Virus record (IMG/VR): IMGVR_UViG_2711768008_000020
DNA from: a virus
Taxonomy: Duplodnaviria > Heunggongvirae > Uroviricota > Caudoviricetes
Length of the DNA: 5,264 nt
Direction: 5' to 3' (one strand)
This document shows, one piece after another, positions 840 to 5,264 of this stretch (its first letter is position 1; every line of letters begins with the position of its first letter). Position numbers and translations under genes: made by a program. The notes under the pieces were generated by a model. That model was given only the letters and a program-made list of their open reading frames with translations, did not search any database and was not told the DNA's origin.

Positions 840-1421
840 TTACCCTATAGGTGCTACTGGCCATTCAATATCCGGTGCAGTTGATGTATCAACACGGTTC
901 AGCAACACCCGATACTTTTTCCAAGCTTCCAGCAACAAGGTTTCTTTCTCCGTTGCGATCTCCAGATCCACAGCATCCTGAAGCGGCGCTATATGCTCAC
1001 TGGCTACCTGCATCAGGCTGTTTTTTGTTTCTTCCGCCTCCCGGATCCGGAACAGTTTTTCTGCTTCCGTATCCTTCACCCAGGCTGTGCCGTTCCACTT
1101 CTGAAACTCCCCTTCCGGGGATAACCAGGTGACATTTTCCGGTAATGAGCCGAGTTCAGAAATAAATAACGCGTCGCCGGAAGCCACGTCATAAACCGTT
1201 TTACCCCGATGATCTTCAACGAGATGCCACGATGACTCATCACTGTTGAAAACAGCCACGAAACCAGCCGGAATATCTGGCGGTGCAATATCGGTACTGT
1301 TTGCAGGCAGACCTGTATGAGGCGGAATATATGCGTCACCTTCACCAATAAATTCATTAGTTCCGGCCAGCAGGTTATAAATTTTTATGGTCCGTGGTTG
1401 TTCACTCATTCTGAATGCCAT
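840..1421 (-). CDS. tfa: Tail fibre assembly protein (lambda Tfa / TfaE / TfaR family chaperone)
   Basis: 193-aa ORF starting [62 protein letters not shown], matching lambda-type Tfa as I recall it. ATG at 1419-1421 overlaps the stf stop by one base (TAATG). GAGG lies 8 nt upstream of the ATG. Stop TAA at 840-842. Confidence 0.92.
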
Positions 1422-4400
1422 TATGCAAGCCTCACAATATAGTTAAATGCGATGTTTTTGACGGTGTTTTCCGCGTTACCAGCAGCGTTAACGGTGATGG
1501 TGTGTCCATGTGAACCAATCGCAACAGAGTGCGTATGAGCACCAATACCGACAGTATGCGCGTGTGCACCCGCAGATGCTGCTGTGCCGGACAGTGAGTG
1601 TGTATGGTTTCCTTCTGNNNNNNNNNNNNNNNNNNNNNNNNNNNNNNNNNNNNNNNNNNNNNNNNNNNNNNNNNNNNNNNNNNNNNNNNNNNNNNNNNNN
1701 NNNNNNNNNNNNNNNNNNNNNNNNNNNNNNNNNNNNNNNNNNNNNNNNNNNNNNNNNNNNNNNNNNNNNNNNNNNNNNNNNNNNNNNNNNNNNNNNNNNN
1801 GCCACTGGTTAATGAGCCACTGATACCAACCTGATTAGTCCCGCTAACTTGAGTACTCCCTGCCGGAAACATTCCAGTAGGTTGACTCCCGCTATTCGTT
1901 CTGGGCCCAGTCTGACTATGTTGGTGGGCCCCAGCTGAACTTGTAGAGCCGCTCAGACTGTGCGTATGCGCCCCGGTGTTATTCGTGGATTTAGTGCCGT
2001 AATCAAACGACGATGTGGTTTTCGTCCCCAAATCCGTACTGGATGCGCTGGCGCTGTGGGTGTGCGATTTAATGCCATCCTGTTCCTGAGACAATACGGC
2101 ACGACCACTGGCGGGCTTGCCCTTAATCGTCCAGCCACGCATATCAGGGATCACGCCTGACGGATAAGCGGCTGCAAGTTTCGGGTAAGCAGATTTGTCA
2201 AAAGTCTGCCCCTGCATCAGGGCATAACCAGACGGAACGGTATCTGATGGCCACGGGATTGGTGCACCGACTGGATAAAACTCTGCAGGAGGATGAGCCG
2301 AGGTGTAAAGCTGCGCCCACGGCGACCAGTTTGCGTCGGTCGTATCCCGTCGTGAACGAATAAATGCCGGAGCATGAGCACCGCTTGTACCACTCCAGCC
2401 GATGAGTAACTCACCTTCGCCAACGGCTGTCATCCCTTTCAGGTGAATGATATTTCCATACGCTGTTGGATATCCGTTGTTATACACCTCGTATAACTCA
2501 AGACCTGCTGCCCCCTGCGTATTGTCTGTCAGCGCGGCTACCCGACCTTTTGAAGCCAGATTAACTGATGATACTGCTGTTCCACCTGACGGTAGCGCCC
2601 CGATCTCTGATGCCGTTGGCTTATTTCTGGAGTTATAGTCCCTTCGCCAGCCAGGTGAATAATCTGTTCCGTGATTAATATAGGTAAACTGGGCGTTGGT
2701 TGTTCCGCCACCGCTGGATGTGGTCGGAGTGGTAATGCGGATCGTCATCGCTGACTTTATCCCCATTACTTCAATGACAGCTCCGGCGAGATGAATATTA
2801 CCGCAGCCAGTATCAGTAATGATTTTATTATTGCCATAAGACCAGGAACCCTTGCACATCCAGTATGGATGGTTAAATGCTCCCTGAGAATCCAGCCACT
2901 CGATAAACTGTGCAGTCGTCCAGTTTCCTGTTGTTGTGCTTACTGACCCACCGAAGGCACGGCAGGCACCAATATTTTTCGTAAAGGTGTCTTTGCCAGG
3001 GATATCCGCACCGTTCTGATCTTTCTGCAGACGTTTCTCAGCATTGTCATTGGCTGCTTTTACTGCCTTTGGCGTTGCCGCCAGCGTTTCAGACGTGCTG
3101 TTGGTCGCGCTGCTTAGCTGGATTATCCCTTTCTGTGCTGTCGTTGCATCCTGTGCGGTGTATTTCCCGTTAGCCAGGTCATACGCGGCCTTAACGGCTT
3201 TTGGCGTTGCCGCCTGTGACTCGGAAGTGCTGTTAGTCGCACTGCTGAGCTGTACTATCCCCTTTTTCGTCGTGCTCGCATCCTCAAGCGCCACGGCGGA
3301 TGCAANTTTTGCCGCTGTCTCAGCGCGCGTTGCTGCAGATTCCGCCGTACTTTTGCTCTGAGCTGCCGCCGTCGCACTGCCAGCTGCCTCTGTCGCCTTC
3401 GTGGATGCCGTCGTGGCGCTGCCCTTCGCTGCTGACGCCTGTCTGGTCGCCTCATCTTTTGAAGCAGACGCCGATGATGCCGATGACGCCGCCGAACTGG
3501 CGGACGATGCGGCAGCCGTTTTTGAGGATTCTGCACGGGTTTCCGACGCTTTCGCGTTCGTTTCGGATGTCTTCGCTGCGGAAGCTGACCTCGCTGCTGC
3601 CGTGGCCTGCTCAGTGGCTTCGCCAGCCTTCGTTGTGGCTGTTGAAGCGGATGATGCGGCGCTTTCTGCCGATTTTCCGGCGGCGGTGGCACTGGCTGAG
3701 GCCTGCCCGGCACTTGTTGACGCGGCGCTGGCAGACGACGCAGCCGCTGTTTTTGAGCCTGCCGCAGCTGAGGCACTCTGTCCCGCTGCCGTTTCAGAAG
3801 ACCTGGCGTTCGTCTCGGACGTTTTGGCCGCCTTCGCAGAATTTGCAGCCGCCGTCGCCGAGGAAGCTGCGCTACTGGCGCTTGATGATGCGTTCGTTTC
3901 TGATGATTTTGCCGCCTCTTTTGAAGCCGACGCATCCCGGGCTGAGGTGGCAGCTTCTGACGCTTTCGTGGTCGCGGTGGATGCAGAAGTGGCTGCTGAT
4001 TGTTGTGACGCTGCCGCATTCGTTTCTAACGTTTTCGCCGCACCGGCACTGGTAGCCGCCGCGCTTTTTGAGGACTCTGCAGCGGCAGCACTTTTTGAGG
4101 CTTCAGTGGCCTTTGTTGATGCCGTTCCTGCGCTGGAAGACGCTGACTGAGCCGACGAAGCGGCCTGTCCGGCTGACGTGCTGGCTGCACGTGCTGAATC
4201 TGCAGCATCAGTCGCATGGGTTGCCGCCTCACGGGCTGATGTGCTGGCATCGCTGGCTGATTTCTTCGCGGCTGCCGTGTTCTGTGCCACCGCGGACGCG
4301 TTACGCGCCACCTCTTCCACCATCAGCTCAAAACGGCGCAGAGCCTCCGGACGGGCATCATCCTCCGTCATGGCACCGAGAAAATCATTCAGCGTACCGG

Positions 4401-4647
4401 GTCGGGAATCTTCATACACGGTGATGGTCCCGGCATGTGACGGCGGGAATCCCTCCACCAACAGAATAACGCTGTACTGCCCGTACTCAACGTCCATGCT
4501 GTAACGCCCGGCTTCATCCGGATTTTCTGAGGCCAGCGTGTTCACCACCACCGTGGTGCTGTTACGTTTTGCTTTCAGCTGGATTGTGCAGTTCTGTACC
4601 GGTTTTCCTGTGCCGTCTTTCAGTACACCTGAAATCTTTACTGCCAT
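1421..4647 (-). CDS. stf: Side tail fibre protein (lambda Stf / StfR-like), mosaic, interrupted by an assembly gap
   Basis: N-terminus [26 protein letters not shown] from ATG at 4645-4647 (the track's extra MN comes from an upstream GTG). It is followed by a long Ala/Ser/Thr-rich region, a duplicated KGI(V/I)[20 protein letters not shown] motif and a central domain. Downstream of the gap the correct frame reads ...[60 protein letters not shown] and stops at TAA 1421-1423. The track ORF ending at 1432 reads the last ~62 codons in the wrong frame because the 183-N gap is not the true length. Confidence 0.9.
1618..1800. other. Assembly/scaffold gap (183 N) inside the stf coding sequence
   Basis: Uninterrupted run of n from 1618 to 1800. 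Flanking coding frames differ by one base, so the real missing length is not 183. Confidence 0.97.
3052..3272. repeat. Direct tandem duplication (~132-bp period) inside stf encoding two copies of a tail-fibre repeat motif
   Basis: Core ttggcgttgccgcc occurs at 3069-3082 and 3201-3214 with similar flanks. The two copies translate on the minus strand to [27 protein letters not shown] and [27 protein letters not shown]. Confidence 0.7.
3300..4305. repeat. Low-complexity Ala/Ser/Thr-rich coding repeat region of stf (fibre shaft)
   Basis: About 330 codons dominated by A/S/T with recurring motifs ([27 protein letters not shown]). GCN-rich DNA on both strands generates three long shadow ORFs in other frames. 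Confidence 0.65.
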
Positions 4648-4656
4648 ATTCACCCC

Positions 4657-4685
4657 ACAAAAAAGCCCGCCTGAACCGGCGGGCT
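4657..4685 (-). terminator. Rho-independent terminator downstream of lom, immediately upstream of the stf ribosome-binding site
   Basis: Minus-strand AGCCCGCC (4678-4685), loop GGTTCA, GGCGGGCT (4664-4671), then TTTTTTGT, giving a perfect 8-bp GC-rich stem. It lies 26 nt after the lom stop (TGA, 4712-4714) and runs directly into GGGGTGAAT-ATG of stf. Confidence 0.6.
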
Positions 4686-4711
4686 GTCATAACACTGTGT
4701 TACCTGGCTAA

Positions 4712-5264
4712 TCAGAATTTATAACCGACACCCACGATGAAACCGTCAGTGCGCCAGTCACCACTGCCGGAACCTTCATAAGCGACATCAATGGCCACGG
4801 ACTCGGTCGGGTTAAACTGCACGCCAGCCCCCCACGCCAGAGACGTGTTGCTGTGGCGACCGTCATCACTTCCGGTCAGCACATCGTGCGTTTTCCCCTT
4901 ATTGTCAGTTACGCGGATATAATCCCCGGAAAAAGTCGACACACGGCTGTAAGCCACACCCGCCATCGCATACGCGCTGAACCATTCATTCACGCGCACA
5001 GACGGCCCCGCCATCACGCTGAACCAGCGGTTACGCACGGAATCTTCATACCAGCGGGTATCGCTGTAACGGGTCAGCTGGCGATTCTTGTCTCCTGCAT
5101 AGCTGAACGACGTCACCATCCCCAGTGTGTCCGTAAACTCATAACGGTATTTCACGTTAATCCCGTTCAGATCATCACTGCCGGGAACGTTCGTCGAGGC
5201 ATGAAGATACCCCGCGCTCAGCGTGGACTGATGTTCAGACGCCCATGCAGGCGCACCGGATACG
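4712..5264 (-). CDS. lom: Lom/Ail/PagC-family outer-membrane beta-barrel protein, partial (N-terminus beyond window end)
   Basis: Reading frame is open from the window edge to TGA at 4712-4714. C-terminus ...DVAYEGSGSGDWRTDGFIVGVGYKF and internal GINVKYRYE, VMAGP, SAYAMAGVA motifs match lambda Lom as I recall it. The track's start at 5155 is an internal GTG. Confidence 0.85.
   Translation of the reverse strand, partial: VSGAPAWASEHQSTLSAGYLHASTNVPGSDDLNGINVKYRYEFTDTLGMVTSFSYAGDKNRQLTRYSDTRWYEDSVRNRWFSVMAGPSVRVNEWFSAYAMAGVAYSRVSTFSGDYIRVTDNKGKTHDVLTGSDDGRHSNTSLAWGAGVQFNPTESVAIDVAYEGSGSGDWRTDGFIVGVGYKF

Follow-up and report, generated by a model that had tools for sequence, protein, structure and literature searches.

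The spacer between lom and the side tail fibre gene stf contains a GC-rich hairpin followed by a T-run, which is very probably a Rho-independent terminator forming the 3′ end of the lom cassette: the lom message would end there in the lysogen, and RNA polymerase modified by Q would read on into stf. The sequence analysed is a stretch of 5,264 nucleotides (hereafter the window) that represents, as its minus-strand image, the distal tail region of a lambda-like prophage. E. coli chromosomal prophages match the whole window with 96% identity, and all the features under study (lom, the spacer, stf and tfa) lie on its minus strand. The 3′ part of lom (4712..5264, with the stop codon TGA at 4714-4712) is truncated by the window end. 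Its translation belongs to the Ail/Lom outer-membrane beta-barrel proteins and matches Pfam PF06316 (Ail_Lom) with 366 bits over profile positions 17-199 of 199. A 3′ untranslated stretch of 26 nt (4686..4711), read directly and near-invariant among 157 related junctions, opens the lom-stf intergenic region, which measures exactly 64 nt (4648-4711). The following gene, stf (1421..4647), starts with the ATG at 4647-4645 and stops with a TAA at 1423-1421 that overlaps the ATG of the tail fibre assembly gene tfa; the N-terminal 130 residues of Stf match proteins carrying the prophage tail fibre N-terminal domain PF08400. The tfa gene (840..1421; Pfam PF02413 Caudo_TAP, 150 bits) is the last one served by the presumed read-through transcription.

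Several other traits of the window were observed on the way. A run of 183 N (1618-1800) and a single N at 3306 both fall inside stf; past the run the true Stf frame shifts and leads through a His-rich C-terminus to the TAA at 1423-1421. Since the run breaks the frame, the listed ORF of 1073 amino acids ending at 1432 is an artefact at its 3′ end, caused by the masked stretch. Rfam returns a full-length match to IS009 (RF02111; 218 bits, E = 2.7e-54) at 880-1078 of the minus strand, and this catalogued candidate small RNA lies here entirely inside the tfa coding sequence. On the 3′ side of tfa, an AT-rich non-coding stretch (91-839; 750 nt, 31.5% GC) adjoins an IS1 end (1-90) and carries, on the plus strand, an 11-pair hairpin with a T-run (723-747). 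The E. coli genomes closest to the window continue with genes for an IS1A transposase and an AraC-family regulator.

On the minus strand the spacer reads TTAGCCAGGTAACACAGTGTTATGAC-AGCCCGCC-GGTTCA-GGCGGGCT-TTTTT-GT-GGGGTG-AAT-ATG. The hairpin AGCCCGCC-GGTTCA-GGCGGGCT (4685..4664) consists of eight pairs, seven of them G-C, closed by a loop of 6 nt. The last pair is formed by A4685 and the first T of a T6 run (4664-4659), the U-tract of the transcript. The run is followed by G and T and then by GGGGTG (4656-4651), the Shine-Dalgarno sequence of stf, which is separated from the ATG by the 3 nt AAT. The earlier note on this DNA had described a GC-rich hairpin of 8 bp with a U-tract after lom, and this is borne out; its statement that the structure abuts the stf ribosome-binding site is literally true, GGGGTG beginning two bases past the T-run. 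Folded in isolation, the hairpin reaches -18.2 kcal/mol (z = -5.0 relative to dinucleotide shuffles). Read on the other strand, it leads into GTCATAAC and not into a T-run, hence the element works one way only. Between the T-run and the ATG of stf there are just 11 nt, a gap that leaves no room for a separate stf promoter after the terminator, and stf would therefore depend on read-through.

Rfam has no family above threshold at the site. A sub-threshold match to Trp_leader (21.7 bits against a cut-off of 41) was rejected as an identity, as it only mirrors the shape of a terminator. The 3′ untranslated stretch of lom also contains a near-palindrome, TAACAC-A-GTGTTA (4690-4702, minus strand), found in almost all of the 157 junctions; a 6+6 palindrome within 64 nt is not significant once the possible spacings are allowed for.

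We then compared the hairpin with chance expectation in a strict scan of both strands of the window, which required seven or more perfect pairs, six or more of them G-C, a loop of 3-8 nt and no fewer than five T within the 8 bases that follow. The lom-stf hairpin was the sole site recovered, and only one of 300 dinucleotide-preserving shuffles of the window (0.3%) contained any such site. A looser terminator scan found 6 candidates against 5.7 expected, with the lom-stf hairpin by far the top-scoring one. The element shows three properties of intrinsic terminators: a GC-rich stem-loop within their usual range (about 5-14 bp, loop 3-8 nt), a U-run right behind the stem on the sense strand of lom, and an occurrence above chance. 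Its location right behind a stop codon is canonical as well.

The mechanism that we favour is the following. Ordinary RNA polymerase transcribing lom would pause at the U-run, the GC hairpin of -18 kcal/mol would form in the exit channel, and the RNA would be released some 7-9 nt past the stem. The lom message would consequently end at about 4655-4660, a reasonable location for release at that distance, and stf-tfa would stay silent in the repressed prophage. After induction, Q-modified polymerase coming from pR′ would ignore the lom-distal terminator, as well as the one located after J (see below), and continue into stf. Q antitermination of lambdoid late transcripts is well established. We infer from this arrangement actual termination, its efficiency and the Q-dependent read-through, the last on account of this lambda biology and of the lack of room for an stf promoter after the terminator. 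The element would in this manner explain both the silence of stf-tfa in prophages and the need for Q-modified polymerase.

Published data bear on the lysogenic part of this mechanism. Lom has been cited as a prophage-expressed, moron-encoded protein, and reports on the expression of lambda lom in lysogens conflict (Osterhout et al.; Chen et al. 2005): it was not reproduced in one array study, whereas Chen et al. 2005 did detect it. In K-12 MG1655 the lomR-stfR junction of the Rac prophage is identical to that of the window, and it is absent from the curated Term-seq 3′ ends of this strain (Adams et al. 2021) and from the TRS tables. The K-12 lomR gene is split by IS5 and may be silent, which has to be considered when reading this absence.

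To which gene the terminator belongs becomes apparent from the comparison with phage 21, which lacks both lom and the lom-distal hairpin but whose stf has the same initiation region and is still preceded by the hairpin next to J. After its J stop codon, phage 21 reads TTTTATAACCCAGATAC-GGGCGCCAGAAATGGCGCC-TTTTTTATT and then directly TGTGGAGTGAATATG of stf. In lom-bearing phages the left part is the same up to TTTTTTATT, after which they carry GCAGAAAAGCGAGAGGTAATT-ATG, the rest of lom up to its TGA, the 26-nt 3′ UTR, the AGCCCGCC/GGCGGGCT hairpin and the T-run; the right flank is common to phage 21 and lom-bearing phages from TGTGG(A/G)GTGAATATG of stf onward. These alignments support a unit of insertion or deletion made of the ribosome-binding site, lom, its 3′ UTR and the terminator, with both borders in T-runs. 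Because the comparison places hairpin and T-run inside this unit, the earlier claim that lom carries its own terminator, as far as a predicted terminator goes, is supported. The alternative of a terminator belonging to the border of J and stf, and not to lom, was rejected, as the lom-less phage 21 keeps the J-proximal hairpin only.

Distant Ail/Lom genes, which occupy other places in tail operons, give a comparable picture. One was seen in a Xenorhabdus prophage, where L and K are its neighbours among the tail genes (Pfam Phage_tail_L, Ail_Lom and Prok-JAB + NLPC_P60), and a Proteus prophage has one too. Each of these genes is followed by an unrelated hairpin with a T-run located just before the ribosome-binding site of the next gene (AACCTGC-TTCG-GCAGGTT-TTTT; AAAAGTCGGCA-TTA-TGCCGGCTTTT-TT). 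The terminator is not always maintained, since a Citrobacter prophage keeps the stem of the homologous hairpin with a T-run decayed to TCTTATGG. Downstream of Phi24B-type lom genes there is no predicted intrinsic terminator. The Phi24B small RNA 24B_1, described as lying ‘between lom and vb_24B_43’, was rejected as a counterpart of the element studied here, for the spacer there measures 428 nt and shows no predicted intrinsic terminator.

A separate observation concerns the lom-less phage PhiR12_2_star (locus L125, 1818-2000), in which J and stf are separated by a spacer of 183 nt ending in an unrelated strong hairpin (-21.1 kcal/mol) and a T7 run directly before the ribosome-binding site of its stf homologue. 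This hairpin could be what is left of a different cassette, or a terminator that arose independently between J and stf.

The sequence upstream of lom lies beyond the window and was examined in relatives. In all full-length relatives, J and lom are separated by another terminator-like hairpin, for which the records of phages 434 and mEp460 give a rho-independent terminator; in the lom-less phage 21 it lies between J and stf. Its positions are 2406-2432 in loci L001 and L002, 1461-1489 in L130 and 3921-3945 in the lambda locus L003. Its stem occurs in compensatory alleles, GGCGTC/GACGCC, GGCGCC/GGCGCC and GGCACC/GGTGCC (G-C to A-U and C-G to U-A), and in the further versions CGTCCG/CGGGCG in lambda and GAGCGC/GGCGCTT in Citrobacter. 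Across 17 variants two pairs are changed on both sides, giving a covariation score reached by one of 500 shuffles. The T-run of the J hairpin ends about 21 nt before the ATG of lom, a gap with room for the ribosome-binding site only, and lom is therefore bracketed by two terminators.

This has consequences for the promoter-gene-terminator layout that the earlier note had assigned to lom, with the suggestion to look for a promoter upstream. The relatives do not support that layout, as they have the J terminator just upstream of lom and no consensus promoter. In lambda and in mEp460 the sense strand showed no consensus sigma-70 promoter over the more than 900 nt preceding lom, and promoter searches upstream of lom, which covered lambda, phages 434 and mEp460 and a prophage of E. 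coli, gave nothing convincing. The only candidate from a weight-matrix scan, TTGAYA-16-AA(A/G)CGT, is weak and coding-constrained; it lies inside J, about 180 nt before lom and ahead of the J terminator. Nor is the base composition of lom deviant, its GC content (0.55-0.56) being that of J (0.55-0.57) and stf (0.54-0.58). According to the literature little is known of the lom promoter; a non-consensus or an activator-dependent one is conceivable. The cassette itself appears to be promoterless and is placed after another terminator.

The same evidence gives some room to a different view of the cassette, in which lom would be a terminator-gene-terminator unit placed after the J T-run, with no promoter of its own, and the pair of terminators would set the dosage of Lom and silence stf-tfa. 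For Lom made in the lysogen there would be two possible sources: transcripts that start inside J and leak through the J terminator, or an unconventional promoter that overlaps the J hairpin. We regard this possibility as real, if rather doubtful.

Returning to the predicted Rho-independent terminator at the end of lom, we examined how its sequence varies. Viral and genome contigs yielded 157 junctions, which reduce to 29 sequence variants. Their mean column identity is 95%, and in 97% of cells the stem is paired; the 64-nt spacer of the window is the commonest variant (90 of the 157 junctions). Variation within the hairpin clusters in the loop, which shows five substitution variants and one 3-nt deletion (forms include GGTTCA, GGAACC, TGTTCA, GGTTAA and GGTTCT). 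Across the 29 variants, the recurrent stem changes turn G-C into G-U pairs, and the T-run varies in length from T5 to T7 only. No compensatory double change was found in the lom-stf stem among these variants, with no excess over shuffles, and covariation is uninformative here because the sequences are too alike. Furthermore, the coding DNA on either side is as well conserved as the spacer (92-95% identity between lambda and the window); since it equals that of the coding DNA, conservation alone is not proof of selection on the structure. It is consistent with a function and does not prove one.

Over most of lom, lambda and the window are only 48-67% identical, and their Lom proteins about 45%, but identity rises to 92-95% from about 4800 through the spacer into stf. 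This jump places a mosaic breakpoint, as judged from the alignment, inside lom at about window position 4800, some 90 nt before the stop codon; the terminator therefore travels with the 5′ end of stf. We observed accordingly that very different lom alleles have a common 3′ end and terminator.

Three other functions, or the lack of any, could be proposed for the hairpin. It might act mainly on read-through late mRNA, either as a barrier to 3′ exonucleases for a processed J-lom message or as a structure setting the translation of stf. The late mRNA does include the hairpin, 8 nt upstream of the stf Shine-Dalgarno sequence, and hairpins of unrelated sequence recur directly before the stf ribosome-binding site in the lom-less phages 21 and PhiR12_2_star. 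However, all of these recurring hairpins carry a T-run, which an element of stability or translation would not need, and the fold of the 81-nt context is not unusually stable (z = -1.68) and leaves the stf Shine-Dalgarno sequence free. A role in mRNA stability or translation could besides coexist with termination and need not replace it, and as the main function of the hairpin we hold it to be improbable.

The two terminators flanking lom could also be partial attenuators even for Q-modified polymerase, stepping the expression of stf-tfa down relative to J. The number of terminator-like hairpins between J and stf does vary: phages with lom have two in a row, phage 21 has one, and the distant stf-homologue phages PY54 and Rac-SA53 have no terminator before stf. 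As these two phages manage without one there, the terminator is not required for stf expression as such. Against such attenuation stands the known efficiency with which Q-modified polymerase reads through terminators, which is very high, and the fact that side fibres need more, not fewer, subunits per virion than J. We consider partial attenuation quite unlikely.

Finally, that the hairpin is a functionless relic hitch-hiking in a highly recombining block (the lom 3′ end, the spacer and the stf 5′ end) would fit with a spacer conserved no more than the coding DNA around it, with a stem lacking compensatory changes and with a breakpoint near 4800 that lets the spacer move with the stf 5′ end, but it is scarcely credible, as so strong a canonical terminator is very unlikely to arise by chance, unrelated Lom-family cassettes have independently gained terminators at the same relative place, and variation avoids the stem.

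The predicted Rho-independent terminator of lom is a widespread element that independent annotators had marked before. The lom-stf region is present in 243 phage records, and a ‘terminator’ feature stands at exactly this site in phage 434 (OL657226), mEp460 (JQ182728) and Ayreon (MF807953), the record of phage 434 also marking a ribosome-binding site directly after it. In lambda (NC_001416, around 19,6xx) the element is present but unannotated; a variant loop there extends the stem to 9 pairs, one of them G-U (-17.7 kcal/mol). Of 5426 complete E. coli genomes, 4315 contain the 101 bases centred on this junction region, with up to 13 copies per genome and 12,232 occurrences in all. Being annotated in several phage records and present in about 80% of complete E. 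coli genomes, the lom-stf terminator is an already known and ordinary element. The value of the present analysis lies mainly in its correct annotation, which marks the 3′ border of a very common passenger gene of E. coli prophages. Apart from this, DNA identical to lambda over the lom-stf region was seen on contigs of low coverage, at most about 48.5 kb long (loci L142-L153), in assemblies of unrelated taxa (Neobacillus, Kitasatospora, Pseudomonas, Shewanella and others); these are most likely contaminations of the assemblies with lambda control DNA.

The lom cassette can be compared with several known systems. The morons of lambdoid phages, as defined for HK97 and HK022 (Juhala et al. 2000; reviewed in Cumby et al. 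2012, PMC3594210), are genes that come with a promoter and a terminator of their own. Like these, for example HK97 gp22/gp23 with their putative terminators, lom is an accessory gene of the late operon that is variably present, at the same site in close relatives, and that is followed by its own predicted terminator. Unlike them, the lom cassette has no detectable promoter in the relatives examined, starts 21 nt before the ATG, after the J terminator, and does not deviate in GC content. The description of lom as a moron, put forward in the earlier note, is hence right in part only, given that no promoter was found, that base composition is not deviant and that another terminator lies directly upstream.

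A second parallel is the control of lambda late transcription by pR′, tR′ (6S RNA) and Q, where likewise an intrinsic terminator lies in the late unit and has to be overridden by Q-modified polymerase. Yet tR′ is regulatory and located beside the promoter, whereas the lom-stf terminator, some 19 kb further downstream, merely accompanies a passenger gene. Closer at hand, the J terminator (‘tJ’ in 434, mEp460 and 21) resembles the lom-stf one as a hairpin with a T-run between late genes, directly upstream of a ribosome-binding site, but it differs in sequence, is present with or without lom and shows compensatory covariation. At the corresponding place HK97 has a J-stf spacer (locus L129, 5032-5240) with a long inverted repeat, GGAAGGTGCGAATAAGT...ACTTATTCGCACCTTCC, over about 90 nt before a short stf; this repeat is unannotated in the HK97 record. 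The closest counterparts remain the annotated sites of phages 434, mEp460 and Ayreon, which share position, hairpin, T-run and adjoining stf ribosome-binding site with the window and differ in nothing of substance; in lambda the differences are confined to the loop and one G-U pair.
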